A stretch of DNA of 64,000 bases from assembly GCA_963717445.1 (NCBI GenBank), contig OY970334.1, positions 3,891,406 to 3,955,405 of the forward strand, in the 5' to 3' direction. The stretch is from an uncultured Bacteroidota bacterium. GTDB taxonomy: Bacteria > Bacteroidota > Ignavibacteria > UBA10030 > UBA8401. Below the pieces are notes generated by a model, which was given only the letters and a program-made list of their open reading frames with translations, was not told the origin of the DNA and did no database searches. Of the stretch, positions 11,123 through 64,000 are shown one piece after another; position 1 is the first letter of the stretch, and each line of letters begins with the position of its first letter. The position numbers and the translations under genes were made by a program.

Positions 11123-11166
11123 GGTGCGGAAAATGATAGAATAAGTTTAGCTTCTTGACAAGATCG

Positions 11167-12162
11167 TTATTTTTTTCTGTTCATTGCAACGGTCCGCGCA
11201 AGCTGAACCGCCGCGATCATGCTTCGTGGGTCCGCGATGCCTTTGCCGGCGATGTCGAAGGCCGTTCCGTGATCGGGCGAGGTGCGGATGATGTTCAGCC
11301 CAGCCGAAAAATTCACGCCTTCATTGAACCCGGTCATTTTCAGCGGAATCAGTCCCTGGTCGTGATACATTGCCAGCACGGCGTCGAACTCTTTCTGCTT
11401 CGATGTTGCAAAGAAGGCGTCCGCAGGGAACGGACCCGACGCGCTGATCCCTTTTTCCACCGCCTTCATTATTGCAGGCTCGATGATTTCAATCTCTTCA
11501 AGCCCGATAGCGCCATGCTCGCCTGCATGAGGATTTAAGCCGAGCACGGCGATTTTTGGAGCCTTAATGCGAAAGTCATTTTTCAGGGAAGCATCGATGG
11601 TCTCGAGCTTTTCAACAATACGTTCGATGAAAATGTTTTCTGCCACTTTTTGAATCGGGAGGTGAATCGTCGTAAGGCCGACGCGAAAGGATTTCGCTAT
11701 CAACATCATCGTTACACGGCTTGACCGGCTCAGCATCGCAAGCATTTCCGTCTGTCCAGGAAAATTGTATCCCGCTATATGAAGCGACTCTTTTGAAACG
11801 GGTCCTGTAACCATTGCATCCGCTTCTCCGTCGATGCACATCCGCACTGCTTTTTCAATCGACATTCCTGCGCAAATGCCGGCATCGGGAGCCGGTTTGC
11901 CGATTTGAAGGTTCTTTACGGTGGCTTGATAGATGTTCACGACAGGAACGGCGTTTGCCGGGACAGCCTCGGACGGCGATTGCACGGCAACCAGCTTTTT
12001 TTTCGTCTTCAGCTTCTTCGCATAATGCTCAAAGATTTCAAACGAGCCGACAAGTATCGGCTGGATCGTTTTTAGGAGGGAGGGGGTGTCGATATTTTTG
12101 AGGATGACTTCAGGAGCGATGCCGTTAAAATCTCCAATGGTAAAAGCAATACGAGGCTTCAT
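11167..12162 (-). CDS. pdxA: 4-hydroxythreonine-4-phosphate dehydrogenase
   Basis: MKPRIAFTIGDFNGIAPEV…HDQGLIPLKM…GLNIIRTSPDHGTAFDIAGKG is the PdxA family signature. Confidence 0.9.
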   Translation of the reverse strand: MKPRIAFTIGDFNGIAPEVILKNIDTPSLLKTIQPILVGSFEIFEHYAKKLKTKKKLVAVQSPSEAVPANAVPVVNIYQATVKNLQIGKPAPDAGICAGMSIEKAVRMCIDGEADAMVTGPVSKESLHIAGYNFPGQTEMLAMLSRSSRVTMMLIAKSFRVGLTTIHLPIQKVAENIFIERIVEKLETIDASLKNDFRIKAPKIAVLGLNPHAGEHGAIGLEEIEIIEPAIMKAVEKGISASGPFPADAFFATSKQKEFDAVLAMYHDQGLIPLKMTGFNEGVNFSAGLNIIRTSPDHGTAFDIAGKGIADPRSMIAAVQLARTVAMNRKK

Positions 12163-13568
12163 TTAGTTCCGGATGCAATGAGTTTATAGTTTCCCTGGCG
12201 GCTTGGGTCTTCAAAGATAAATTCTTTATTGAGTGATGCATAGGTCCAGACTTCTCTCGGCGGCCCTCCCGGTGCGAGCGAACGTTCGATGTTCGACGGC
12301 TTGCCATACAAAATATAGATCTTTCCCCGGTCGGTCAGGACGCCGTTTTCCTCTCTCAACGTTCTGAAATTTGCGAACGCGTAGTCGACTCGTTGGAAGT
12401 ACACCGCCATCATCTCGTTGTATGCGGACCCCGGCACGTTGTTGCGCTTTGCCCAGAACTCTTCAAATTTTTTTATCCGCGCATCTCTGCTTCCGCTCCT
12501 GAGATCGTCGTATTCACTGTCGGTGGTAATGTATCTCATTGCCGAGACGGAAAAATCTAAATCATACAACGACAACGGCATGTCCCTCCAGCGGATGGAA
12601 AATTCTTTGTTCACGGTTGCCGTATCCTTGGCGGAAATGTGAATACGGGCTGTATATTGTCCTTGCTTCAAATGCGAGGTCAATAGCGGGAAATAGACGG
12701 TTGCAGTCGTTGCGTTGCTGTCCAAGACATACTCGATGTTTCCGGAATTTGTCGGGAGCAACCGGAGCAACGAATGGTGGATAACAGTCGCTGTTGCAGT
12801 TGTTTCTTCCTGAACGACGATTCGTTCTCTATCTTCCGGCATGAATTGCGTCAACGAGTATCTCACCGTGACCGGCGCGTTTTCGTCCTTGATTGTAAGA
12901 ACCGTTCCTGTGTTCTTTGAGAACTGTGCGGCGTTGTTGTCGTTCAGCGCTGTAAAACTTCGTTCGGATAATGGCCGGTCGGTCGGTTCGATAAACAGGG
13001 CCGTCGATCGGACGACTGCGTCAGGCCGGAATCGAACGACGCGCAAAATTTGTTTTCGGTCCCCAAATTCTCGTTGAGATTCATTATCCTCGAGGTGGTA
13101 CACAGTCGTGAAACGCCCCGGATGCACAACGAACGATGCCGCCCCCTGATAATATTGGAGTCGCAACTGGGTGATTTCGTTGTCCGGGATATCTAGACTA
13201 ATGGCCTGGACTTTTCTGGAAACCGACGTGTCGGTGGAATCGATCAACTCGATGAGTAATTCGCCATGGGCCCGGTATGACGGCACATTGGTCGAAAAAT
13301 CCCGTGTGAAAACAAAAAAATCGAACCGCACCCGGTAGAGGATATCGACCCGCACCAATCCGGAATCCTCGGCGAACATGTGGGGCTCGAAGCTGACAAT
13401 TTCCATTGGCGATCGCTCTCCGGATCTGCCCCCTTCGCCGAATCGTTCCCGTTCTTCATCCTGTGCCTGTAACGGCGAAAAACCTGCAAGCACACAAAGG
13501 AACCCGCACACGGCGAAAAGAATTTCGATCCAGCCTCTACGCATATTTGATATCATGAAGAAATGCAC
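12159..13568 (-). CDS. GWxTD domain-containing secreted protein
   Basis: C-terminal ENGVLTDRGKIYILYGKPSNIE (a GWxTD-like motif with W replaced by V). N-terminal signal peptide/TM. Confidence 0.6.
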   Translation of the reverse strand: MHFFMISNMRRGWIEILFAVCGFLCVLAGFSPLQAQDEERERFGEGGRSGERSPMEIVSFEPHMFAEDSGLVRVDILYRVRFDFFVFTRDFSTNVPSYRAHGELLIELIDSTDTSVSRKVQAISLDIPDNEITQLRLQYYQGAASFVVHPGRFTTVYHLEDNESQREFGDRKQILRVVRFRPDAVVRSTALFIEPTDRPLSERSFTALNDNNAAQFSKNTGTVLTIKDENAPVTVRYSLTQFMPEDRERIVVQEETTATATVIHHSLLRLLPTNSGNIEYVLDSNATTATVYFPLLTSHLKQGQYTARIHISAKDTATVNKEFSIRWRDMPLSLYDLDFSVSAMRYITTDSEYDDLRSGSRDARIKKFEEFWAKRNNVPGSAYNEMMAVYFQRVDYAFANFRTLREENGVLTDRGKIYILYGKPSNIERSLAPGGPPREVWTYASLNKEFIFEDPSRQGNYKLIASGTK

Positions 13569-15108
13569 CGTCTTGTCTGCCGATAATTTTTTGTGGATTG
13601 AAGATATTCTGTGGGTCGAGCGTTTCTTTAATCTTTTTGAAAATTCCGTATATCTCCGGACCGAACGCCCGCTCTAAGAACGGGGTCCGGACAAATCCGT
13701 CGCCGTGTTCCGCGGAGAGAACGCCGTCGAGCTTGATGATGAGGTCGAACACCTCTTGCGTCGCACCCTCAATCTGCTTTCTTCCGGATTCGGTTGTCAC
13801 CTCTCCAAACGTTGAACAATGGATATGCCCCATCCCCGCGTGGCCATAGACCGTGAAGGCAATGCGGTGCGCGTCGAGGATTTTTTTTAGTCCGGCAATA
13901 TACGCGGGAAGATTTCGGAGCGGTACAGCCCCGTCTTCGACGGTAGAAATCTTGTGTTCATGAGACGGCAAGTGATTAATCATTTCGGAAACCGTTTCTC
14001 TTACCATCCAGAGTGATTGCCGTTCGGCCTCGGTGTTCAATGAAATCCAATCGAGAAGAATGTTTGCCCGTTGAAGCTCACTGCGGAGCGATTCGGCTTG
14101 GTGGCGGAGCGAACCGGCATCGTCGCCTTCGAATTCGATAAGCAGCATCGTTTGGAAATCCCGGTCGATAAACCGGTCGCTTATAGCACTTAATCCCTTG
14201 CCCACGTCGGTGTACGATTTATCGAGCAGCTCTATGGCGGCAGGAGAGAAGCTGCGGGCGATTTGCGTTGCTTCGGCCGTATGTTCATACGAGCGAAAAT
14301 ATGCCGCTGCTGCGACGGTCGCTTTCGGCAAAGGAAGAATGTTCAATGTCGCTTCTGTGACAATTGCAAGCGTTCCCTCGGAGCCGCAAATCAGCCTTGT
14401 CGCATCGAAATGGTTGCCCCGGAGCGATTCGAAAATATTATACCCGCTTGAATATTTTTCTACCGACGGTTTGTGTACGTCAATCACCTGTTGTTGTTGA
14501 TGGAGAATATTTTTCACATGAGAGAAACGGTTGCGCGCTTCAGGGGTTAGACGGCTTTCTTCTTCGTTTGGATTAATAACCGCCGCATCTCCGTTTGAGA
14601 GAACAACGGTGAGACTTTTGACCTGGTTTTTCGTCGACCCATACCGCAAGCCGTGTGCACCGGCAGCGTTGGTGGCGACTGAGCCGCCGACAGTGCACAG
14701 CTTTGCGCTCTGAGGGTCAATCGGATAGAATTTTCCAAGCGGCTGCAGCATGGAGCTTACATCGTTTAGAATGCAGCCGGCCTCGGCAGTCACGGATGAC
14801 GCTTCTTCTGAAATCTTCACCACGTGACTCATATACTTCGTGAAGTCAAGAATAACCCCGAAGCCTACTGCCTGACCGACTAATCCCGAGCCGCCTCCGC
14901 GCGGGATCAGGGCGATCTCATATTCAGCACACAATCGAACGATGCGCTGGACATCCTCAATATTTTTTGGAGCCACAACACCGACAGGCATCACTTTATA
15001 CATGCACGTCGCCGTGCTGAACTCGGTCCGTTTATCTACGTCGAACCAGACATCCCCGGAAATCTGCCGGCGTAATTCTTTTTCGACGGTTGCAAAGGGA
15101 GAATACAT
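13537..15108 (-). CDS. FAD-linked oxidase (GlcD/D-lactate dehydrogenase family)
   Basis: FAD-binding PCMH-type N-domain (ALIPRGGGSGLVGQAV) and a C-terminal FAD-oxidase domain. About 520 aa. Confidence 0.8.
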   Translation of the reverse strand: MYSPFATVEKELRRQISGDVWFDVDKRTEFSTATCMYKVMPVGVVAPKNIEDVQRIVRLCAEYEIALIPRGGGSGLVGQAVGFGVILDFTKYMSHVVKISEEASSVTAEAGCILNDVSSMLQPLGKFYPIDPQSAKLCTVGGSVATNAAGAHGLRYGSTKNQVKSLTVVLSNGDAAVINPNEEESRLTPEARNRFSHVKNILHQQQQVIDVHKPSVEKYSSGYNIFESLRGNHFDATRLICGSEGTLAIVTEATLNILPLPKATVAAAAYFRSYEHTAEATQIARSFSPAAIELLDKSYTDVGKGLSAISDRFIDRDFQTMLLIEFEGDDAGSLRHQAESLRSELQRANILLDWISLNTEAERQSLWMVRETVSEMINHLPSHEHKISTVEDGAVPLRNLPAYIAGLKKILDAHRIAFTVYGHAGMGHIHCSTFGEVTTESGRKQIEGATQEVFDLIIKLDGVLSAEHGDGFVRTPFLERAFGPEIYGIFKKIKETLDPQNIFNPQKIIGRQDGAFLHDIKYA

Positions 15109-44779: not shown

Positions 44780-44853
44780 GGGCCCTTAGCTCAGTTGGTT
44801 AGAGCAGCTGACTCATAATCAGCGGGTCGGAGGTTCAAGTCCTCCAGGGCCCA
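44780..44853 (+). tRNA. tRNA with CAU anticodon (Met, or Ile2 read as lysidine-CAU)
   Basis: Manually folded cloverleaf: acceptor GGGCCCU/AGGGCCC with discriminator A; D-arm GCUC…GAGC; anticodon stem GCUGA/UCAGC with loop CUCAUAA; T-arm GGAGG-UUCAAGU-CCUCC. C4-G69 and C5-G68 resemble tRNA-Ile2. No CCA is encoded. Confidence 0.9.
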
Positions 44854-52255: not shown

Positions 52256-53203
52256 ATGTCTATTACCGTTCGTAATCTAACCAAGTTGTACGGTGAAGAG
52301 AAAGCGATCGATGACATTTCGTTTGACGTAAAGACGGGAGAAATTCTCGGCTTCCTCGGACCTAATGGTGCCGGCAAAACGACGACGATGAAAATCATAA
52401 CCTGCTACATGCCCCCGAGTGCCGGGAGTGTGACAGTTGATGACTATGACATCGGCGACCATTCGCTTGAGGTGCGGCGCAAGATCGGTTATTTGCCCGA
52501 ATTGAACCCGCTTTATCTAGATATGAATGTTCTGGAATATCTCGAATACTCCGCTCAACTTCATAAAATGCAAAAACTTCAGATCCGCCAGCGAATGCGG
52601 GAAATGATCGAGGTGTGCGGATTATCCGGAGTTCGGCATAAAGACATCGGCGAGCTGTCGAAAGGATACCGCCAGCGAGTAGGGCTGGCACAGGCGATGA
52701 TTCACGACCCCGACGTGCTCATTTTAGACGAGCCGACGAGCGGGCTTGACCCGAACCAAATTGTCGAGATTCGGAATCTCATCCGCAAACTCGGCAGCGC
52801 AAAGACGGTGATTCTTTCCACGCATATTCTTTCCGAAGTACAGGCAACGTGCGACCGGGTTATTATCATCAACGAGGGAAAAATTGCCGCGGATGGAACC
52901 CCCGATCAACTCCAGCATGAATTCCGCGGCTCCGATATCATCTCCATCGAGCTGAAAGCAAACGTTGAAAACGGCATGACCGAAATTTTTCCGAAAATTA
53001 AATCGCTCGCGAATGTGGAAAACGTTCAGTATCAGAACCCTTCACCGGGGATACACCGGTTGGTCATTACGGCGGGGAAGGGGTCCGATATTCGCGAGGA
53101 CCTTTTCCGCCAGGCAGTGAGCGAACAATGGGTGTTGCTTGAAATCCACCGTGAAGCAACAAGCCTTGAAGAAGTGTTCCATAAGCTCACGACTGTGAAT
53201 TAA
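52256..53203 (+). CDS. ABC transporter ATP-binding protein (GldA-like)
   Basis: Walker A GPNGAGKTT, LSKGYRQRVGLAQAM signature, Walker B LILDEPTSGLD. Confidence 0.9.
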   Translation: MSITVRNLTKLYGEEKAIDDISFDVKTGEILGFLGPNGAGKTTTMKIITCYMPPSAGSVTVDDYDIGDHSLEVRRKIGYLPELNPLYLDMNVLEYLEYSAQLHKMQKLQIRQRMREMIEVCGLSGVRHKDIGELSKGYRQRVGLAQAMIHDPDVLILDEPTSGLDPNQIVEIRNLIRKLGSAKTVILSTHILSEVQATCDRVIIINEGKIAADGTPDQLQHEFRGSDIISIELKANVENGMTEIFPKIKSLANVENVQYQNPSPGIHRLVITAGKGSDIREDLFRQAVSEQWVLLEIHREATSLEEVFHKLTTVN

Positions 53204-53231
53204 TCGTGCTATTCATTGACGGGATTTGTGT

Positions 53232-53843
53232 ATGGGTTCAGAAATGAGCTGCTCGATGAAATATGGCGGGAAGGTATTCAAAGGGAAAGCCCTGCTTGAG
53301 ACCGACGAGCTGATCTTTCGCGGCGAACAACGGCTGACGATTCCGTTCAAGAAAATGAAGTCTGTTGAAGCCAACGATGGAGAACTGACGATTGTCTTCG
53401 ATGGCGGCACAGCTTCATTTGTGATCGATACAGCAGCCGAGAAATGGGAAGAAAAAATTTTACATCCAAAAAGTATTCTGGAAAAAATTGGCGTAAAGCA
53501 CGATTCGCGGGTGAGCGTTGACGGTGTGACGGACAAGGAGTTCCTGGATCAATTGAGAGAGAAAACAGATGATGTCTCAGTCACGGAGCTGCAAAGAGAG
53601 TCCGATATCATTTTGTATGCGGCGGACAGCAAAAAAGAGCTTGTCAAGCTAAAGGGAATTAAACAATTTCTCAAAAAGAATGGGGCCATTTGGATCGTCT
53701 CGTCGAAAGGAAAGCAGGCAAAGATAAAAGACACCGACGTTATGGCAGCGGGAAAAAAGGCGGGCCTTGTCGATACAAAAGTCGTTGGATTTTCCGAGAC
53801 ACATACGGCATTGAAGTTTGTGATACCGGTAAACAGTAGGTAG
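53232..53843 (+). CDS. hypothetical protein
   Basis: ORF between the ABC ATPase and permease genes. No recognised motif. Start uncertain (ATG at 53232, 53244 or 53256). Confidence 0.4.
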   Translation: MGSEMSCSMKYGGKVFKGKALLETDELIFRGEQRLTIPFKKMKSVEANDGELTIVFDGGTASFVIDTAAEKWEEKILHPKSILEKIGVKHDSRVSVDGVTDKEFLDQLREKTDDVSVTELQRESDIILYAADSKKELVKLKGIKQFLKKNGAIWIVSSKGKQAKIKDTDVMAAGKKAGLVDTKVVGFSETHTALKFVIPVNSR

Positions 53844-53935
53844 TAAGCAGTAAGCAGTAAACAGTAAACAGTCATAACGCACCGATACCTAATAGTCAAC
53901 ACCTAAAACCTTTCATTTACAATCTACAACGAACC

Positions 53936-54676
53936 ATGCATTTCGATTTCACAAAATTTTTCAGCGGATATTCGAACGTCGGACCGATTTTTCGGAAAGA
54001 ATTGCGCTCGTATTTTAATTCCGCGGTAGCGTACGTTGTTATCGTCGTTTTCCTCGCCATCGTCGGATGGTTTTTTACCAGCAATCTTTTTTTAATGAAC
54101 GTCGCGTCGATGAGGATGATGTTCGAAGTCGTCCCCGCCGTATTCCTTTTCATTATCCCCGCAATTACGATGAGATTGTTGTCCGAAGAGAAAAAAACCG
54201 GGACGATAGAGCTGCTGACAACGAAACCAATTTCCGATTCCGAGATTGTCCTCGGCAAATTTTTTGCGGCGTGGACTTTGGTCGGAATTGCGATGCTGCC
54301 GACGCTTCTCTATTACATCACGATTGCGTTCCTCGGAAACATCGATAACGGCCCGGTCATCGGGGGGTATTTCGGGTTGATGCTCATGGCGGGGGTGTAC
54401 GTCGCAATCGGTTTATTCGCCTCGAGTTTAACGGACAATCAGGTTGTCGCTTTCATCCTCGGGTTCGTTTTTGTTTTTGCGCTTTATATGCTGGACAAAA
54501 TATTGTTTTATGTGCCGGAATGGATGACGACAACGGTCGAATTTCTCGGTGTTGATTTTCATCTTTCAAACATCGCGCGTGGAGTGATCGACACAAGGGA
54601 TGTTATTTATTTCCTCTCGATGCTGGGGTTCACGCTTTTGCTATCAGTCGGTTCGCTACAGAGAAGAAAATGGTAA
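53936..54676 (+). CDS. ABC-2 type transporter permease (GldF-like)
   Basis: Six predicted TM segments. Follows the ATPase. Confidence 0.8.
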   Translation: MHFDFTKFFSGYSNVGPIFRKELRSYFNSAVAYVVIVVFLAIVGWFFTSNLFLMNVASMRMMFEVVPAVFLFIIPAITMRLLSEEKKTGTIELLTTKPISDSEIVLGKFFAAWTLVGIAMLPTLLYYITIAFLGNIDNGPVIGGYFGLMLMAGVYVAIGLFASSLTDNQVVAFILGFVFVFALYMLDKILFYVPEWMTTTVEFLGVDFHLSNIARGVIDTRDVIYFLSMLGFTLLLSVGSLQRRKW

Positions 54677-54709
54677 ACAGAATTAGCATTTTTACATTGA
54701 AACGGTAAA

Positions 54710-56281
54710 ATGACGACGATGAACACAAAAAGAAATCAAGCAATCATACGGGCGTTACTGGTGCTCGGCATTCTCATCGTTGTGAACGTTATCTCGGTCC
54801 GCATTTTCGACCGGCTTGACCTCACAAAGCAGAAAGTGTACACGCTTTCAGATGCAAGTAAAAAGCTCGTGCGTTCCCTCGATGACAGAGTGACCGTCCG
54901 CGCATATTTTACCGAGGACCTTCCGTCGCCGTACAACGATAACCGGCGCGAAGTCCTGGACCTCTTAAACGAGTACAAAGCGTACGCCGGCGGCAATCTG
55001 CAATACGAATTCATCAATCCCGAAGGAGATAAGGGAGAACAAGAGGCGCAACAGCAGGGAATTCCTCCCGTGAACGTACAGGTTGTGAAGGAAGATAAGT
55101 TCGAAGTAAAGCGAGCGTACCTCGGCCTTGTGATGATGTACGAGGACAAAAAAGAAACGCTGCCGGTGATCCAAAACCTCGGGTCGCTTGAATACGACAT
55201 CAGCAGCGCATTGAAACGATTGACCACGCGCCAGAAGAAACGCATTGGTTATACGCTTGGGCACGATGAAACGGATTTGTCGACGATGAAGGAGGCGTAT
55301 CAGACGCTCTCATCACAGTATGAACTTACGCCGGTGAACTTGACTGGAAACGGAAGTGTTCCCGCCGACCTTGCGGCATTGCTCGTGATAGCGCCTCAGA
55401 AAAAATTCAACGACTCCTCAAAATTTCAGATTGACCAATATTTAATGCGGGGTGGAAAAATAGCGTTCTTGTTGAATAAAGAAAATGCAAGCCTCCAGGC
55501 GCAGTATGCTCAGCCGTTAGACCTTAACCTGGACGATCTCCTTGCCCAATACGGCACGCGTGTCAACAACGATCTCGTTCGAGATGCGCAGTGTGCAAGC
55601 GTCAATGTTGTTCAGCAGCAAATGGGTTTTACGATGCAGAGCCAGGTTCCTTTTCCGTATATGCCGATGGCATCGGGCTTCAACAAAGATAACATGATCG
55701 TCAAGGATTTGCAGAACGTGATCTTCTATTTTGTAAGTTCCATCGATACCAGTTTTGCATCTGCGAAAGGATTGAGGGAGCAAGTGCTGGTGAGTTCATC
55801 AAAACGGAGCGGGCGGCAAACCGGCTTCATCGCGATCGATGCGTTCCACCGCTATACCCCCGATGAGCTTGCAGAATCGAATATTCCGCTGGCCGTGGTC
55901 GTGGAAGGATCATTCAAAAGTTTGTACGCGAACAGGCCGATGCCGGGGCTTATGACATCATCCTCGCCCATGGTGTCGAGCCCTGAAACACGGATCATCG
56001 TTGTTGGAGACGGTGATTTTATGAAAGACGATTTTTCGCGGAACCCCGGCAATCTTACGTTCTTCGTTAATATGGTCGACTATCTTGCGGATGACGCGGG
56101 ATTAATAACCATACGGTCGAAGAACGTTGCGATGCCTCCGCTTGACCAGATCTCGGACGGCACAAAAAATCTTCTCAAGTACGGCGATCTTCTATTACCG
56201 CCCTTTGCTGTTATCGGTTATGGCCTGATTCGATGGCGAACGCGGCTTGCACGGAAAAGAGCAATGGAAGCTTCACTATAA
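54710..56281 (+). CDS. GldG-like ABC-transporter auxiliary protein
   Basis: N-terminal TM, large extracytoplasmic domain, C-terminal TM (LLLPPFAVIGYGLI). Size and position are typical of GldG family. Confidence 0.65.
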   Translation: MTTMNTKRNQAIIRALLVLGILIVVNVISVRIFDRLDLTKQKVYTLSDASKKLVRSLDDRVTVRAYFTEDLPSPYNDNRREVLDLLNEYKAYAGGNLQYEFINPEGDKGEQEAQQQGIPPVNVQVVKEDKFEVKRAYLGLVMMYEDKKETLPVIQNLGSLEYDISSALKRLTTRQKKRIGYTLGHDETDLSTMKEAYQTLSSQYELTPVNLTGNGSVPADLAALLVIAPQKKFNDSSKFQIDQYLMRGGKIAFLLNKENASLQAQYAQPLDLNLDDLLAQYGTRVNNDLVRDAQCASVNVVQQQMGFTMQSQVPFPYMPMASGFNKDNMIVKDLQNVIFYFVSSIDTSFASAKGLREQVLVSSSKRSGRQTGFIAIDAFHRYTPDELAESNIPLAVVVEGSFKSLYANRPMPGLMTSSSPMVSSPETRIIVVGDGDFMKDDFSRNPGNLTFFVNMVDYLADDAGLITIRSKNVAMPPLDQISDGTKNLLKYGDLLLPPFAVIGYGLIRWRTRLARKRAMEASL

Positions 56282-56298
56282 CATTTCTGAACATCGGT

Positions 56299-57180
56299 AT
56301 GAAAAAAAATATTTACGTGCTTCTCGGAATTTTTGCAGTCCTCATTGTGGTCGCATTGTGGTTGATGAACCGGCCGGGGGAGCAGGACATTTCTACCGGC
56401 AACGCCCGGCTTCTTGTGACTTTCGACTCGGCCGCTGTCGACAAAATCGAAATCAAATCGCCGATAAACAGTGTCACGTTGGAAAAAAATGGGGCGGAGT
56501 GGTTTCTTAGCGAACGTGTTGCGTATCGCGCAAATCAATCCAGCGTAACATCGATGGTTCATCAATCGAAAAATCTTGCAGTGAAAGAAATTGTTTCAAG
56601 CAACCCGGAGAAACGTTCTATATTCCAGGTTGATTCGACGGGCACACTCGTCAAAATATTCCAACATGGCCAAGAATGTGCCGCGTTTGTGGTCGGAAAA
56701 CTGGGGCAGAGTTATTCCGAAACATACGTTCGTAATGACCAATCCAACGATGTTGTCGTTGTGGACGGACCTCTCTCATTCTCGTTCAACAAAGCGGCGA
56801 AAGATTGGCGGGACAAAACTGTTTTGAACATTCCTAAAGAAACCATTACGTCAATTTCGTATCAGTATCCCGGGGAATCATTTTCTCTTTCGTTCCATGA
56901 CAGCGTTTGGATGATTGGGGATGCCAAGCCGAAAGCCAGCGATGTGACATCGCTCCTTGGTGCGATATCGAACATCCAGGCGGACGATTTTGTCGATTCG
57001 GTTCTCACACCGGCTCCGAAAATCACAGCGACAATTTCCGTAGGGGATGTTCAACTTCGATTCTCTGAAGTTAAAGGCAAGGACGAATATTTTGTACAAA
57101 CATCCAGCTCTCCGCAATGGTTTGAACTGCAGGGTTGGCGGGCCAAACAGTTGCTAAAACACAAGAAAGACATGCTGTAA
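56299..57180 (+). CDS. DUF4340-like protein partnered with GldG-like gene
   Basis: N-terminal TM (MKKNIYVLLGIFAVLIVVALW) starting at the internal ATG 56299. Conserved partner position after gldG-like. Confidence 0.55.
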   Translation: MKKNIYVLLGIFAVLIVVALWLMNRPGEQDISTGNARLLVTFDSAAVDKIEIKSPINSVTLEKNGAEWFLSERVAYRANQSSVTSMVHQSKNLAVKEIVSSNPEKRSIFQVDSTGTLVKIFQHGQECAAFVVGKLGQSYSETYVRNDQSNDVVVVDGPLSFSFNKAAKDWRDKTVLNIPKETITSISYQYPGESFSLSFHDSVWMIGDAKPKASDVTSLLGAISNIQADDFVDSVLTPAPKITATISVGDVQLRFSEVKGKDEYFVQTSSSPQWFELQGWRAKQLLKHKKDML

Positions 57181-57206
57181 TTGAGATAACGTCCACACGT
57201 GTAGAA

Positions 57207-57246
57207 AAGCGCTCTGATTTACAAATGTAGTCAGAGCGTTTTTTTA
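57207..57246 (+). terminator. rho-independent terminator
   Basis: CGCTCTGA-N13-TCAGAGCG followed by TTTTTTT. Confidence 0.8.
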
Positions 57247-57404
57247 GAACTGATAAATCAGGCCTTTACTTTTTCAATATTTGAGAAAAAGAATAACGAA
57301 TGTTCTGTTATATGAGTTTACCGCGGCATTTTTATGGAATGAAGCTTGCGTACGATATAAACGAGGATTTCTCTATCTATTGGAAGGATGGATCCTGTTG
57401 ATCG

Positions 57405-57419
57405 TTGAATAATATTCAA
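57405..57419. promoter_or_regulatory. Fur-family (PerR/Fur-type) 7-1-7 box upstream of rubrerythrin
   Basis: TTGAATA-A-TATTCAA is a perfect 7-1-7 palindrome (flanked CG…CG), about 105 bp upstream of the rubrerythrin start. Confidence 0.55.
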
Positions 57420-57525
57420 CGCATGTTTCTTCTCAAATTGTCTTTTTGAAAGCAGGCCTCCCGGGCATGCTCCTTCTGACTCACTAGAGAATCATCAGAA
57501 GCTCTTCATCAAAGGAGGGTTCAAA

Positions 57526-58197
57526 ATGAACTCAAGCACATTATCCCACCCTAAAAAATTCCTCGACTTCTTCCCCAAACTTTCCACGCTGGTTTTGATA
57601 AGTTGTCTTATTCCTTTTTCTTTTTTTACAGGGTGTAAAAAAAATGAAGCGAAGGAATCTAAGCCGGAAATTACTCTTCAAAATTTGCAGACCGCATACA
57701 ATCGGGAAATGAGGATCAGCAGAGAATGCGAACTTTTTTCGAAGAATGCAGACAAGAACCGGTATAGTGCAATTGCCAATTTATACAGGGCTGTGTCGCG
57801 TTCTGAAGAAATTCATGCGGAAATGGCCGCTGCGCTGCTGCGAAGCAAAGGTGTCGATGTTACTCCGTATGTGGCGGATCCCATCGCCATCGGCACCGTC
57901 ATGCAAACACTTCGTCTAGCGCTCAGCGAAGAGTCGCTGGAGACCGAATCGATGTATCCTAATTTAGCGCGCACGGCTAACGCCGAGAAATTTGTAGCGG
58001 CGGTGGAATCATTCGGGCACTCTCTCAATGCGGATAAATGGAATGCGGAGCTATTCAAGGATGCCGTAGATAAAAGTGGATACATCACAAGAGTGCAATA
58101 TTTCGTTTGTCCATGCTGTGGATACATTGTTACATCCGATACGGCTAAAGAATGTCCGGAGTGCCACGAGAAAAGAGAGAAGTTCGAAAAAATTTAA
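57526..58197 (+). CDS. rubrerythrin-family lipoprotein (ferritin-like domain + C-terminal rubredoxin-like CxxC…CxxC)
   Basis: Lipoprotein signal (…FFTGCKK), ferritin-like helices, C-terminal CPCCGYIV…CPECH. Confidence 0.75.
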   Translation: MNSSTLSHPKKFLDFFPKLSTLVLISCLIPFSFFTGCKKNEAKESKPEITLQNLQTAYNREMRISRECELFSKNADKNRYSAIANLYRAVSRSEEIHAEMAAALLRSKGVDVTPYVADPIAIGTVMQTLRLALSEESLETESMYPNLARTANAEKFVAAVESFGHSLNADKWNAELFKDAVDKSGYITRVQYFVCPCCGYIVTSDTAKECPECHEKREKFEKI

Positions 58198-58319
58198 GAC
58201 GGGAAGGAGAAGTCATTTTTCGGCCGACAAGAGGGGTTTGCAATTTCTATTCAACAACTGAACATCATCCTCAAAAAGGTAAAACCTCACACCTTTTCTT
58301 CCACTGAAAGCGCATTTCT

Positions 58320-59441
58320 ATGGTCATCATTCAACGCAAAGATTTCGATTTCCTCCTAAGCGCTTTGCAAAAGCGTGACTATGCAATCATGGGCCCGAGC
58401 GTTAGAGATGGTGCAATCATGTATGACGAAATCCGCTCGGTTTCGGATCTCCCCGTAGGCTGGACGGATGAACATGAAAAATCGCGGTACCGGTTGAAGC
58501 GCCGAGCCGATGCGGCTTTGTTTGGCTATACCGTCGGTCCTCAATCATGGAAGAAATTTCTTTTTCCACCTCTTGCAAAGATCCTCACTGTCGTGAAAAG
58601 GGGAAAGGCAATGGAAATTAAGCTTGACGGCTCAAAGGAGATTCCCCCACGGTATGCTTTTTTTGGCGTTCGACCGTGCGAATTGAATGCCATCACGATC
58701 CAGGATAAAGTGTTCAACAATGATCGGTTCTCCGACCCTTCGTATTGCGCCCGTCGGAAGAATGTTTTCATTGTTGCGGTGAATTGCACGGAGAGCGGCG
58801 GAACGTGTTTCTGCGGTTCGATGAACACCGGCCCGGAAGTGAAGGGGGGATATGATATCGCCCTCACGGAAGTTGTGAAAGAAAGCGTTCATTATTTTAC
58901 GGCGGAAGCGGGAAGTGATAAAGGCAGCGAGGTCTTGAATGATGTCCCTCATAAGAATGCCGAAACAAGCGAGGTTGAGGCTGCTCAGGAGTTAGTCAAT
59001 GCCACGAGAACGAACATGGGGAGAACAATGGACACGGATGGTCTCAAAGAGCTTCTCGTCGACAATCTAGAAAGCGCTCATTGGGATGATGTCGCACGCC
59101 GATGCTTGATGTGCGCCAATTGCACCTTGGTCTGTCCCACATGCTTTTGTTCAACCGTTGACGATGTGACAGATTTGAGCGGAGAGCACGCAGAACGGTG
59201 GCGGCGATGGGATTCTTGTTTCACGATGGATTTCGCCAAAGTGACGGGTGGAAATTTTCGCCTGTCTCCCAGAGCACGGTATCGTCAATGGATGACGCAT
59301 AAGTTCTCAACATGGGTTGATCAATTCGGTACTTTAGGGTGTGTCGGCTGCGGGCGTTGCATTACATGGTGCCCGGTTGGCATTGATGTTACGGCTGAGG
59401 TTCAAGCGATCCGGAACAATAGCGTTCGAAGTGATGCATAA
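58320..59441 (+). CDS. hydrogenase/sulfur reductase beta subunit (HydB/AsrA-like, two [4Fe-4S])
   Basis: CLMCANCTLVCPTCFC and CVGCGRCITWCP ferredoxin-type motifs. 373 aa. Confidence 0.75.
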   Translation: MVIIQRKDFDFLLSALQKRDYAIMGPSVRDGAIMYDEIRSVSDLPVGWTDEHEKSRYRLKRRADAALFGYTVGPQSWKKFLFPPLAKILTVVKRGKAMEIKLDGSKEIPPRYAFFGVRPCELNAITIQDKVFNNDRFSDPSYCARRKNVFIVAVNCTESGGTCFCGSMNTGPEVKGGYDIALTEVVKESVHYFTAEAGSDKGSEVLNDVPHKNAETSEVEAAQELVNATRTNMGRTMDTDGLKELLVDNLESAHWDDVARRCLMCANCTLVCPTCFCSTVDDVTDLSGEHAERWRRWDSCFTMDFAKVTGGNFRLSPRARYRQWMTHKFSTWVDQFGTLGCVGCGRCITWCPVGIDVTAEVQAIRNNSVRSDA

Positions 59442-59460
59442 TTTTCTATAGGAGTCGAAT

Positions 59461-59925
59461 ATGCTAAAAGAAGACCTTAGTGAAGTGCTGAGAAAGCATC
59501 CTTTCGTGGGCGACCTGGATGACAAATATCTTCAACTCCTCGTTGGATGTGCGAAGAATGTGCACTTCCAGGAAGGCGAATATCTTTGTCACGAAGGGGA
59601 GGCTGCCGACTTGTTCTTCCTCATCCGGACCGGAAGAGTTGCAATAGAAATTCACGCCGGACACAAAGGGAAGCGGAGGATTCAAACCATCGGACCCGGT
59701 GAAGTGCTCGGTTGGTCATGGTTGATTTCTCCGTACCGCTGGCACTTCGATGGTTGTGCCGTTGCTGAACTTCGGGCATTGGCTCTCGATGGGAAATGCC
59801 TTCGTACCAAATGCAACAAAGACCACGATTTCGGTTATGAAATGCTGAAACGACTGGCGGATGTTTTCCAAAGCCGCATGGAAGCTACACGCCTTCAATT
59901 ACTCGATGTCTACGGTTCACGTTAA
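59461..59925 (+). CDS. cyclic-nucleotide-binding (cNMP-binding) domain protein without DNA-binding domain
   Basis: [19 protein letters not shown]…[13 protein letters not shown] is a Crp-like beta-roll. 154 aa with no HTH. Confidence 0.65.
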
Positions 59926-59936
59926 GGAGTGACTCA

Positions 59937-60801
59937 ATGAATCAACCGGCTTTTGTTGAAGTCGAAGGGCTCGTCGACCCGATGTTGCCGCAGTTGATGT
60001 GCATCAAGAGAATTGTGTGGGAAACGGATGACACGTTTACGCTTCAGTTGGAAAACGTAGGCCGCCCTGCCGCGGAGTTCTCATTCCTGCCGGGGCAATT
60101 CAACATGCTGTATGTATTCGGGATGGGGGAATCGGCTATCTCGATTAGCTCGGATCCGTCGAAGCCAAGCATGCTCGCTCACACGATCCATCGGGTCGGA
60201 ACCGTGACCAATGCCCTTTCGCAGATGAAACGGGGTGATATCATCGGATTGCGCGGTCCGTTTGGCAGCAATTGGCCTATCGAGAAAGCGAACGGATTGG
60301 ACGTCTGCATTGTCGCCGGTGGAATCGGCCTTGCGCCTCTTCGTCCGATGCTATATTCGCTCTTTCGTAGGCGAAGAGATTACGGACGCGTATTGCTCTT
60401 ATATGGTGCGCGCAGTCCGCTCGACCTTCTCTATAGAGTAGAACTTGAACAATGGAGCAAGCAGTACCGATGTTGAAGTCTTGGTGACGGTGGACCGGAG
60501 CGATTCGACATGGAAAGGGTACATCGGTGTTGTCCCCAACCTTTTCTCGTATATCAAGCTCGATGCCCGCGCAACGATCGCGATGGTCTGCGGTCCTGAA
60601 ATAATGATGCAGTACACAATTACGGAGATTTTACGTTGCGGTGTACCGGCGGAACAAATTTATTTGTCGATGGAGAGGAACATGAAGTGCGCCGTCGGCT
60701 TCTGCGGTCATTGCCAGTATGGACCGAAATTCATCTGCAAAGATGGACCGGTCTTTCCTTTTCCTCGCATAAGCAGCTACTTCGGAAAAAAGGAAATCTA
60801 A
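59937..60801 (+). pseudogene. hydrogenase gamma subunit (HydG-like FAD/NAD-binding, 2Fe-2S) with apparent frameshift near 60465-60475
   Basis: N-terminal part 59937..60476 (FAD/NAD-binding: FTLQLEN…PGQFNML; [14 protein letters not shown]) and C-terminal part 60445..60801 (CAVGFCGHCQYGPKFICKDGP) lie in different frames. Both halves are needed for a complete subunit. Confidence 0.65.
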
Positions 60802-60802
60802 G

Positions 60803-61576
60803 ATGAAATCACGCCAACCCAAAGTCGCGATCTACAAATTCGCTTCATGCGATGGTTGCCAGCTTTCGCTCCTCGACGCGGAAGATGAACTGCTTGCCGT
60901 TGCGGGTGCGATCGACATTTCATACTTCCCCGAAGCAAGCCGCAGGGTAGTGCGAGGACCGTACGACCTCGGGCTGGTTGAGGGAAGCGTCACAACTCCG
61001 CACGACGTGGGACGTATCCGTGCAATCAGAAAAGAATGCCGCACCCTTATCACGATAGGTGCATGCGCAACGGCAGGGGGTGTTCAGGCACTGCGCAACT
61101 GGAAGGACGTGAAAGAATTTGCGCGCATTGTTTATCCGAACCCCGAGTATATTTCGACGCTTGACCGCTCCCTTCCCATAGGTTCGTTTGTCCACGTTGA
61201 TTTTGAACTTCGCGGCTGTCCGATCAATAAGCATCAACTCATTGAAGTACTCGTCGCGTTTCTTCACAAAAGGAAACCGAACATTCCTTCACACAGCGTT
61301 TGTATCGAATGCAAGCTCAAAGGGAATGTCTGTGTGATGGTCGCCCAAGGGACACCCTGTCTCGGACCCGTTACGCAGGTTGGATGCGGGGCGCTGTGCC
61401 CGTCGTTTCAACGGGGATGCTACGGGTGTTTCGGCCCGATGGACAGCGCCAATACTGCCTCACTCAGCAAACAATTCGCCGAGGGGGGAGCGACGGAGCT
61501 CGAAATAAAACTTGCGTTTCGCAGTTTCAATGCATATGCCGAAGCATTCCGAAGGGAGAGTGACTCCCATGAATGA
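60803..61576 (+). CDS. [NiFe]-hydrogenase small (delta) subunit, group 3 type
   Basis: [18 protein letters not shown]… is the NuoB-like 20-kDa family. Confidence 0.85.
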
Positions 61577-62855
61577 TAAAACAATAAAAGTCGATTACCT
61601 GGCGCGCGTTGAGGGGGAAGGTTCGGTCTATGTGAAGATCAAAAACAACGAGGTCGCGGATGTCAAATTCAAAGTCTTCGAGCCGCCGCGATTTTTTGAA
61701 GCGTTCTTACGGGGAAGGAAATTTTCCGAGGCGCCGGACATTACTGCACGTATATGCGGGATCTGCCCGATTGCGTATCAAATGAGCTCAGTGCACGCGA
61801 TGGAAAATGCCTTCAACATTTCGGTTGACGGGCAGCTTCGCGCTCTTCAACGTCTGCTATACTGTGGAGAGTGGATCGAGAGCCATGTCCTTCATGCGTA
61901 CATGCTCCATGCTCCGGACTTTCTCGGTTATGAAGACGTTCTGCAATTGGCCAAAGACCATTCTGCGGTAGTACAGCAGGCCTTAAGGATGAAGAAAGTC
62001 GGGAATGATCTTGTCACTCTCCTCGGTGGAAGAGAAATTCATCCCATCAATGTGCGGGTCGGAGGATTCTATAGGGTTCCTGCAAAAAATGAATTTCTTC
62101 CGATCAGCGAGAAATTGAAATGGCTGCGTGATGCAGCCATTGAAATGGTCCGTTGGAGTGCCTCGCTTCCGTTCCCGGAGTTTGAACGAGATTACGAGTT
62201 TGTTGCGCTCTCTCATCCTAATGAGTATCCGTTTAATGAAGGGCGTCTTATCTCCAACAAGGGGCTCGACATCAATGTCAAAGAGTATGAATTTTATTTC
62301 CACGAAGAGCATGCTTCATATTCAAATGCGTTGCAGTCGGTGTTGAAAGAGCGGGGATCGTATCTCGTTGGCCCGTTAGCCCGGTTCAATCTGAACTATG
62401 AGAAGCTCACACCGACGGTGAAAGAACTGGCACAAGAAGTTCATTTTCTTCCTATCGTCCGAAATCCGTTCAAGAGCATCGTTGCGAGGTCAATCGAAGC
62501 GCTCTATGCGTGCGAAGAGGCGTTACGTATCATCGATCAATATGAGCCTCCTGAAAAACCTGCAGTCGATGTGACGCCGAGGCCGGGACTCGGTTTCGCC
62601 TGCACGGAAGCACCTCGTGGGATTCTTTATCACCGTTACCGAATCGGGGAGAACGGCATAATCACCGATGCCAAAATTGTTCCTCCCACCTCGCAAAACC
62701 AGCGTTCAATTGAACAAGACCTTCGTAACGTCGTTGTCAAGAATATAGCGATGCCGAAGGAACAGATGACATTGCTTTGCGAGCAAACCGTGCGCAATTA
62801 TGACCCCTGCATTTCCTGTGCGACGCATTTTTTGACGTTGGAATTCGAAGAATAA
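61569..62855 (+). CDS. [NiFe]-hydrogenase large (alpha) subunit, group 3b-like
   Basis: N-terminal [11 protein letters not shown] (RxCGxC) and C-terminal DPCISCATH (DPCxxCxxH) Ni-Fe ligands. Start ATG overlaps the small-subunit 3' end. Confidence 0.9.
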
Positions 62856-63038
62856 ATCCGAGGCAATGGTGTGATGGAACTCTAAAGAACAACGATGAAA
62901 GGGGCTTTTGAGTTGTCTCTCAGAAGCAAACAAACACAAGAGACACTAAGCGGCAAAGAAGAGCGAACACCTCTTTTCTGTGAGTCTTGGTGTCTTTGCG
63001 TTTAACATGGTACCGCAAATCCAAGACGGAGGTGTATT

Positions 63039-63536
63039 ATGGGAAAGATTACCGACCTTTTGATATATCTTCAAGATAATAAAGTTCAGCACGAGATGAT
63101 TGAACATGACGAAGCATTCACGGCCCACGATGTTGCTCGAACGTCTCATGTTCCAACGAAGGAGTTGGCTAAAACTATCATTGTACGTGCTGACGGTGGT
63201 TTTTGGATGGCTGTCCTACGTGCAGATCAAGTGATTGACCAGAGTTTGTTACGAAGGGCGTTGCAAGCGAAAGAACTGCACTTTGCTAACGAAGAGGATT
63301 TGAGTTTTCTCTTCCCCGATTGCCAGATAGGCGCCATGCCTCCGTTTGGAAATCTTTACGGTGTGCCGGTCATTGTCGATGCCGCGCTTGCCGCAGACGA
63401 AGAGATCGCATTTAACGCTTGCACTCATACAAAAGTCATCAGGATGAAATACGTTGAGTACGAAAGGCTTGTAAGGCCGAGGGTGGGTGTGTTTGCCCAA
63501 TCGCCGTTTGTAGCGAAAGATATTGAGGTTGAGTGA
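63039..63536 (+). CDS. YbaK/ProX-type aminoacyl-tRNA deacylase domain protein
   Basis: 165 aa with the YbaK fold signature (…GAMPPFGNLYGVPVIVD…). Confidence 0.65.
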   Translation: MGKITDLLIYLQDNKVQHEMIEHDEAFTAHDVARTSHVPTKELAKTIIVRADGGFWMAVLRADQVIDQSLLRRALQAKELHFANEEDLSFLFPDCQIGAMPPFGNLYGVPVIVDAALAADEEIAFNACTHTKVIRMKYVEYERLVRPRVGVFAQSPFVAKDIEVE

Positions 63537-63541
63537 AAGGT

Positions 63542-64000
63542 ATGTTGTCATCAGTCCTGATCATAGGAGTCGGAAATGAATTTCGCTCCGACAATGCCGC
63601 CGGTGTTCTTATTGCGCGGGCAATTGAAGAAAAAAAACTTCCGGATGTTCTAGTGATTGAAGGATCCGGCGAGGGCGCCGCGTTGATGGAGGCTTGGAGT
63701 GAGGCTGACAATGTCTTTCTGATCGATGCCGTATCATCCGGTGCAGTACCCGGAACTGTTCATCGTGTTGATGCTCGGATCAAACCACTGCCCAAGGAGC
63801 TTGTTCTATTTTCAACGCACGCGTTTGGCGTGGCACAGGCAGTTGAGTTAGCGCGAAGTATGAATACGCTGCCGCCAAAGTTAGTCCTCTTTGGGGTTGA
63901 GGGTAAAAATTTTAGCTCTGGGACGAATCTGTCATTTGAAGTTTTGGCTGTAGTGCAGAGGATAACACAAATGCTTCTTGATGAAATATCTTCAGTTGTG
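63542..64000 (+). CDS. hydrogenase maturation protease (HycI/HoxW/HybD family), 3'-truncated at the window edge
   Basis: VLIIGVGNEFRSDNAAGVLIA…FLIDAV… is the typical maturation endopeptidase N-terminus. No stop before the window end. Confidence 0.8.
   Translation, partial: MLSSVLIIGVGNEFRSDNAAGVLIARAIEEKKLPDVLVIEGSGEGAALMEAWSEADNVFLIDAVSSGAVPGTVHRVDARIKPLPKELVLFSTHAFGVAQAVELARSMNTLPPKLVLFGVEGKNFSSGTNLSFEVLAVVQRITQMLLDEISSVV

Follow-up and report, generated by a model that had tools for sequence, protein, structure and literature searches.

The 3' end of a 64,000-nucleotide (nt) stretch of DNA from an uncultured Bacteroidota bacterium of the lineage Ignavibacteria (contig OY970334.1, positions 3,891,406 to 3,955,405; the whole stretch is called the window hereafter) carries a [NiFe] hydrogenase gene cluster. 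On the sequence relationships described below, the cluster is accepted as a hydrogenase operon of the bacterial group 3b type (Hyh, or 'sulfhydrogenase' type, with the gene order beta-gamma-delta-alpha). A small gene encoding a protein with a cyclic-nucleotide-binding (CNB) fold lies between its beta and gamma genes. We consider it fairly probable that the region encodes a cytosolic, bidirectional, NAD(P)-linked group 3b hydrogenase, in which the CNB gene is a conserved fifth gene and its product a dimeric partner of the beta and gamma subunits. All the genes that an earlier note, made from the letters of the window, had listed here were recovered at the same positions and on the + strand by open reading frame (ORF) listing and family scans, and they are given below (aa, amino acids).

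57526..58197, + strand: rubrerythrin-like protein, 223 aa; PF02915 and a RUBY_RBDX/rubredoxin-like C-terminus.
58320..59441, + strand: beta subunit (HyhB/HydB), AsrA-like Fe-S electron-transfer protein, 373 aa; PF17179 Fer4_22, E 3e-34.
59461..59925, + strand: CNB-fold protein, 154 aa; PF00027 is the sole family match and a helix-turn-helix (HTH) is absent.
59937..60801, + strand: gamma subunit (HyhG/HydG), AsrB-like, FAD/NAD(P)-binding and [2Fe-2S]; read as two ORFs, 59937-60476 and 60445-60801.
60803..61576, + strand: delta subunit (HyhS/HydD), hydrogenase small subunit, 257 aa; PF01058, NCBIfam HydD and ShyD.
61569..62855, + strand: alpha subunit (HyhL/HydA), [NiFe] large subunit, 428 aa; PF00374, NCBIfam ShyA and HydA.
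63039..63536, + strand: YbaK/ProX-fold protein, 165 aa, between alpha and the protease; PF04073, E 2e-28.
63542..64000, + strand: hydrogenase maturation endopeptidase, incomplete at the window end; TIGR00072, E 4e-32.

The genes from beta through the CNB gene and gamma to delta are separated by gaps of 19, 11 and 1 nt, and delta and alpha overlap by 8 nt, so that beta to alpha fit a single operon. The YbaK-like gene follows alpha after 183 nt, and the protease follows the YbaK-like gene after 5 nt. The complete protease is 156 aa long on a contig from the same strain (L168). The two halves of gamma matched NAD_binding_1/FAD_binding_6 and DHODB_Fe-S_bind in the Pfam scan.

The assignment to group 3b is based on the ranking of solved structures and of NCBIfam models. 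When the alpha subunit was compared by phmmer with all PDB chains, group 3b enzymes came out on top (T. kodakarensis 5yxy, 230 bits; P. furiosus SHI 9nez_D, 228 bits), above MvhA of group 3c (193 bits), HoxH of group 3d (127 bits), the F420-reducing hydrogenase alpha subunit 9sfi of group 3a (127 bits) and the group 1 enzymes (113 bits or less). The sole PDB relative of the beta subunit in a sequence search was P. furiosus SHI beta (9nez_B, E 3e-32), to a segment of which it is about 29% identical, identity to the archaeal subunits being low, and its best NCBIfam matches were ShyB/HydB/AsrA. The NCBIfam sulfhydrogenase models ranked first for all four subunits with scores well under their equivalog cut-offs, as is expected because the cluster is a distant bacterial relative. 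The alpha subunit carries an L1 motif, RICGIC, near its N-terminus and an L2 motif, DPCISCATH, near its C-terminus, followed by an 8-residue C-terminal tail, and the AsrA-like beta and AsrB-like gamma proteins are encoded beside the small and large subunits (family scans and PDB search). The subunit families, their order and their sizes are those of P. furiosus SHI/II (HydBGDA/ShyBCDA), of the T. kodakarensis enzyme and of mycobacterial Hyh, which also have in common with the window operon the L1/L2 Cys motifs and a dedicated downstream protease. These results corroborate the earlier proposal of a group-3b-like enzyme whose subunit order (beta, gamma, delta, alpha) and sizes match the sulfhydrogenase type. 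In such an enzyme, alpha and delta would form the H2-activating module, while beta (AsrA-like, Fe-S) and gamma (AsrB-like, FAD/NAD(P), 2Fe-2S) would form a module exchanging electrons with NAD(P)(H), and the protease would remove the C-terminal tail from alpha once the metal has been inserted. The window operon differs from archaeal group 3b operons by the extra CNB-fold gene between beta and gamma, and its lineage differs from the group 3b references by the added YbaK-like gene before the protease and the rubrerythrin gene upstream.

The CNB gene had been described in the earlier note as an unusual insert, and its absence or variability in orthologous clusters had been named as an argument against functional linkage to the hydrogenase. 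A HydB alignment was used to search one genome of each species, and the best 80 loci (51-60% identity) were annotated locally with phmmer. These loci come from more than 15 bacterial phyla, including Nitrospinota, Acidobacteriota, Cyanobacteria, Chloroflexota, Verrucomicrobiota, Planctomycetota, Proteobacteria and Actinomycetota, and from two archaeal metagenome-assembled genomes (MAGs). The CNB gene was found directly between beta and gamma in 77 of the 80. After the addition of 80 metagenome loci found with HydA, the beta-gamma junction was spanned by 121 loci, and the gene was present at that position in 117 of them, at approximate median distances of -10 nt from beta to CNB and -11 nt from CNB to gamma. 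Since these medians are negative, the three genes overlap, and on this layout the CNB gene is probably co-translated with its neighbours. The order beta-CNB-gamma-delta-alpha was likewise observed on every contig looked up from a CNB match (Kryptoniota, Nitrospinae and others), and also on annotated plasmids of Paraburkholderia and Rhodococcus. A gene kept in 117 of 121 orthologous clusters is neither absent nor variable, and a functional linkage is therefore supported.

A search with the CNB protein returned 2,733 homologues, of which the best 120 are about 153-160 aa long, are 59-86% identical to it and match PF00027 only. Across 84 complete loci, the CNB protein had a mean pairwise identity of 50%, lower than that of beta and gamma (54-57%) and of delta and alpha (64-69%). 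In the same loci, the identity matrix of the CNB protein correlated with those of the other subunits with r values of 0.47-0.64, the same range as that of beta against the others. We regard the CNB gene as co-inherited with the rest of the operon.

The gene has already appeared in print. It was mentioned in a Frankia cluster, where it was termed a small transcriptional regulator (PMC11879354), listed in a Rhodococcus equi cluster (PMC13332983) and named HoxI in a methanotroph (PMC12319191). In the literature on the CNB gene of bacterial group 3b clusters, we found such passing mentions but no functional study. Taken together, the gene neighbourhoods indicate that the CNB gene is a near-universal component of bacterial group 3b operons, previously mentioned and of uncharacterised function. 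The description as an unusual insert thus has to be given up, the gene being near-universal in bacterial-type clusters and absent from the archaeal Pyrococcus-type operon and the SHI complex, whose structures (9nez/9nf0), retrieved in PDB searches with CNB, alpha and beta, contain four subunit types.

Few hydrogenases are as widespread in soils and sediments as those of group 3b, and the mycobacterial ones drive fermentative H2 production under hypoxia. The working model of the group, with four subunits, comes from the Pyrococcus enzyme, and the bacterial versions almost always carry a conserved fifth gene beyond this model. That gene is a clear, testable target for enzymologists. The window itself is one further example of the operon type and is otherwise ordinary; what is added here is the near-universality of the CNB gene, the loss of the residues that contact cyclic nucleotide monophosphates (cNMPs), the tandem and beta fusions, and the conservation of the YbaK-like and rubrerythrin genes in the lineage.

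The AlphaFold2 (AF2) model of the CNB protein (pLDDT 89.7) consists of a beta-roll followed by a 30-residue, CRP-like C-terminal helix. In a Foldseek search with this model, the best match was 3mdp (Gmet_1532, a stand-alone CNB protein), followed by GlxR and CRP, at 21-26% identity, and Gmet_1532, GlxR and M. tuberculosis CRP share the beta-roll and C-helix fold with TM scores of 0.75-0.78 to the CNB protein. Its C-terminus falls at the hinge of CRP, where ...LLDVYG aligns with ...FLDVTGR of E. coli CRP, and no HTH family match was found in the Pfam scan. As judged from the alignment and the model, the CNB protein is a CRP/FNR-type sensor domain with its dimerisation helix, which ends where the DNA-binding domain would begin. 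It differs from CRP/FNR-family regulators in that these have a DNA-binding domain, and in that the Glu and the Arg of its phosphate-binding cassette are replaced by Trp.

This cassette reads G84-W85-S86-W87...P91-Y92-R93-W94. Both a HMMER alignment with PKG and a MAFFT alignment with CRP, PKA-RI, HCN2, MloK1 and PKG placed W85 on the canonical Glu ("FGE") and W94 on the canonical Arg. Among 123 members of the CNB family, G84 was found in 122, W85 in 95, S86 in 117, W87 in 121, P91 in all 123, Y92 in 100 and W94 in 114; the alternatives listed at position 85 are A, V, L and I, never Glu, and position 94 is Arg once. The canonical Glu and Arg (R-[ST/A]-A), both required of a cNMP receptor, are thus lacking from the CNB protein. 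Because both of these residues, which normally hold the ribose-phosphate, are replaced by Trp in a pocket rich in aromatic side chains, binding of cAMP or cGMP is unlikely. The name 'cNMP-binding', under which the gene entered the earlier note, is probably wrong as a statement about the ligand, and the annotation 'cyclic-nucleotide-binding' of the fifth gene is probably misleading in general. The pocket may take up a nicotinamide nucleotide or an adenine nucleotide, or may bind nothing. A metal site made of conserved Cys residues was also considered and was rejected as a general feature, as the Rhodococcus homologue has neither Cys30 nor Cys113.

Fusions of the CNB domain were searched exhaustively over representatives at 50% identity (156 clusters at E<=1e-30). 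The homologues include tandem two-copy CNB proteins of 300-350 aa (P0251, P0252, P0254, P0256-P0259 and P0261), and the GWSW motif is kept in both halves of the two that were read, P0251 and P0252. In a protein of 542 aa (P0285), a HydB-type Fer4_22 module is joined through a short linker to a C-terminal CNB domain. The tandem and beta fusions fit a CNB dimer associated with beta, although at the sequence level they provide no more than hints. Larger multi-CNB proteins were also observed, one with five copies (P0250) and one of 3,779 aa with 12 matched stretches (P0352).

A similar protein is known from another hydrogenase. HoxI of the C. necator group 3d enzyme (HoxHYFUI2) is likewise a small single CNB domain without HTH, encoded in the operon of a soluble NAD(P)-linked [NiFe] hydrogenase; according to the literature, it attaches to the diaphorase moiety in dimeric form and is believed to supply an NADPH site. 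The two proteins differ in gene position (HoxI after the protease, the CNB gene between the diaphorase genes), in their partners (NuoEFG-like for HoxI, AsrAB-like for the CNB protein) and in the cassette, where HoxI keeps the Glu and has His in place of the Arg whereas the CNB protein has Trp at both positions. Orthology with HoxI from pHG1 was rejected, the similarity being confined to the domain level: BLASTP gave an E value of 0.006 over 23 residues, and hhalign gave a probability of 24% at 17% identity.

From the conserved gene position, the fusions and the modelled C-helix, we infer that the CNB protein is bound to the enzyme. As a dimeric accessory or regulatory subunit, it would sit on the beta/gamma module and might modulate how electrons are exchanged with NAD(P)(H), a role functionally analogous to that of HoxI2 on HoxFU. 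A further-reaching proposal, which we regard as tentative and rather doubtful, is that nearly every bacterial group 3b hydrogenase has the CNB protein as a so far unrecognised fifth subunit, namely a dimeric sensor with a remodelled, Trp-lined pocket for a ligand other than a cNMP (for example, the NAD(P)H/NAD(P)+ state) that gates the electron flow through beta and gamma, and that, in Ignavibacteria/Bacteroidota, a YbaK-fold protein was recruited in addition as a dedicated accessory.

Several observations weigh against an enzyme-bound fifth subunit. The CNB gene is missing in four of the 121 loci (L063, L076, L083 and L126), so the enzyme can do without it, as in Pyrococcus, and no CNB gene appears in the published table for Hyd3 of M. 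smegmatis, where the five consecutive genes MSMEG_3931-3927 are beta, gamma, delta, alpha and protease (PMC2799521). Nothing nearer to the CNB protein than generic PKG/CRP domains was found in the PDB, which thus holds no solved structure containing a relative. The beta-CNB fusion P0285 could be an artefact of gene calling or of an indel. Moreover, a linear plasmid of Streptomyces sp. NBC_01527 (L173, 5992-6429) encodes a 36%-identical CNB protein with a GWSW...PPH.W cassette, near genes for glucose-6-phosphate dehydrogenase and carbonic anhydrase; no annotated hydrogenase lies nearby in its gene table, which is incomplete. As this GWSW homologue is located away from an annotated hydrogenase, the CNB family is not exclusive to hydrogenases.

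The CNB protein might instead be a free signal-transduction protein, half of a transcription factor, that regulates the operon through a DNA-binding partner and remains outside the enzyme. Such a role would agree with a sensor domain of the CRP/FNR type whose chain stops at the hinge, with the wording of the Frankia paper and with the Streptomyces relative that is not beside a hydrogenase. However, the protein is devoid of an HTH, and in 117 of 121 loci its gene is placed between two structural genes, with overlapping junctions, although regulators are more often found beside an operon than inside it. The protein also co-varies with the subunits, and a beta-CNB fusion is known. A free regulator therefore appears unlikely to us.

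About as unlikely is the possibility that the cluster is decaying in this genome and no longer yields an active enzyme, which would also count against the proposed hydrogenase. This possibility arises from the window itself, in which one extra C at 60467/60468 breaks the frame of hydG and leaves two ORFs (59937-60476 and 60445-60801), a split that the earlier note had missed. Relatives read AAGCA(A/G)TAC-GATGT at this site and the window reads AAGCAGTACCGATGT (TACCGAT for TAC-GAT); deleting one C rejoins the frame, and the homologues are single ORFs. The contig L168, from an independent Logan assembly of the same strain, encodes an intact gamma subunit of 287 aa. Over 4,439 nt, only three sites differ between L168 and the window (99.93% identity). 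Besides the extra C, these are a G->A change at 61849 in the window, which gives R94Q in HydA where Arg is found in 145 of 145 homologues, and a G->A change at 63593 in the window, which gives D18N in the protease where Asp is found in L168 and in 124 of 125 homologues. In favour of decay, all three differences (truncated HydG, HydA R94Q and protease D18N) strike conserved or even invariant features, as judged from more than 120 homologues. Nevertheless, no neutral difference between the window and L168 was found over the 4.4-kb overlap, and all three differences fall in forward-strand [AT]CGA[TC]G sites, of which the overlap contains 16. For these reasons, a motif-linked base-calling error is likelier; the pattern fits such an error in a long-read MAG (4.2-Mb contig), and the remainder of the cluster is intact. 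An assembly error is, in our view, the probable source of the extra C in hydG, and the three changes together suggest either motif-linked (methylation-related?) base calling in a long-read MAG or CpG-targeted mutation.

Less likely still, the CNB protein could be an assembly or maturation factor for beta and gamma, involved for example in FAD or Fe-S insertion and not present in the mature enzyme. The conserved position of its gene inside the beta/gamma gene pair is consistent with such a function, as is the four-subunit SHI structure, according to which the core enzyme needs no fifth subunit. Against this, no chaperone-like feature was found in the CNB protein, its fold is that of a ligand sensor, and the tandem and beta fusions point to a stable association. 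A dimeric CNB partner of beta and gamma in the enzyme thus remains the interpretation that we prefer.

The YbaK-like gene between alpha and the protease had been considered atypical in the earlier note. It was found at this position in the closest HydA relatives, at 79-90% identity (L088, L089, L092, L093, L094 and L105); in L091, the rubrerythrin gene is present and the YbaK-like gene is absent. In a clade at 66-69% HydA identity, four loci have the full order rubrerythrin-beta-CNB-gamma-delta-alpha-YbaK-protease (L095, L099, L108 and L115), and two contigs that end after the YbaK-like gene (L098 and L101) have the same order up to there. When YbaK homologues at 55-60% identity were sampled (Ignavibacteria and unclassified MAGs), all four (L169-L172) were found at the same place, with rubrerythrin upstream. 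A rubrerythrin homologue lies directly 5' of beta in L091, L095, L098, L099, L101, L108, L115, L129 and L169-L172. Among the 80 genome loci of the HydB survey, a YbaK homologue was near the cluster in just two (L068 and L073), and a rubrerythrin gene upstream of beta was found in none. The gene orders thus show that, as far as can be read from these loci, the rubrerythrin and YbaK-like genes are lineage-specific, conserved additions in Ignavibacteria/Bacteroidota clusters, and the YbaK-like gene is no atypical one-off. The suggestion that the CNB, YbaK-like and rubrerythrin genes are chance passengers, to which the lack of all three in the archaeal reference operon and in the solved SHI complex might lead, is effectively refuted by the neighbourhood survey, with CNB in 117 of 121 loci, YbaK at the same place in 12 metagenome loci and in all four contexts sampled, the most distant at 55% identity, and rubrerythrin co-occurring.

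The YbaK-like protein has an invariant Lys45, of the catalytic type, and an invariant GAMPPFGNLY motif in 14 sequences. With the YbaK/ProXp trans-editing aminoacyl-tRNA deacylases (INS superfamily), it has in common the PF04073 fold, Lys45 and the G-x-x-x-P loop, but its subfamily, unlike those deacylases, sits in hydrogenase operons. It scored 33.9 bits against the YbaK_EbsC equivalog TIGR00011, the cut-off of which is 153, and is not a member of that family; its nearest structure, 3op6, is designated 'uncharacterized protein'. We know of no role for a YbaK-type protein in a hydrogenase operon. Three variations in gene content were noticed around this gene in the more distant relatives: a gene for a 55-aa Zn-ribbon protein that separates the YbaK-like gene from the protease (L171, 7508-7675), a gene for a 182-aa protein without Pfam match between alpha and YbaK (L172, 6342-6890), and a protease that has moved about 4 kb in the 3' direction, past citrate synthase and malate/lactate dehydrogenase genes (L172, 11587-12072).

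The rubrerythrin of the window carries an N-terminal extension of about 45 aa (57526-57660) that ends in a lipoprotein-like signal (...LIPFSFFTGC), and its homologues upstream of related clusters are of similar length (215-219 aa). Its C-terminus contains a CxxC...CxxC pattern; it matched PF02915, PF21349 fell just under the cut-off, and the NCBIfam nigerythrin and rubrerythrin equivalog cut-offs were not reached. The predicted lipoprotein-type signal implies export, which is unusual for rubrerythrins, and because of this signal the protein may be located in a compartment other than that of the cytosolic hydrogenase.

The only Rfam match in the 64-kb window was a tRNA (44780-44853). A promoter and terminator scan of 57100-64000 gave fewer matches than shuffled sequence, Bacteroidota promoters being outside the coverage of the scan. 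Upstream of the cluster, the window contains an ABC-2 type transporter set (52256-57180; ATPase, permease, GldG-like ABC_transp_aux and DUF4340), with a DUF3052 gene (53226-53843) between the transporter ATPase and the permease. Further genes were noted next to the cluster in relatives. On a Nitrospinae contig (L004, 1-891), a response-regulator/HD-GYP-type (HD_5) gene lies directly 5' of beta. In the 87%-identical relative L091, a second, different [NiFe] hydrogenase (small subunit, large subunit and protease; 11134-13660) was observed about 4 kb 3' of the group 3b cluster. Finally, in the same strain, beyond the end of the window and 3' of the protease, L168 (4814-5236) carries a gene for a NuoE/HoxE-like, thioredoxin-like [2Fe-2S] ferredoxin, which may be the start of a further redox module.

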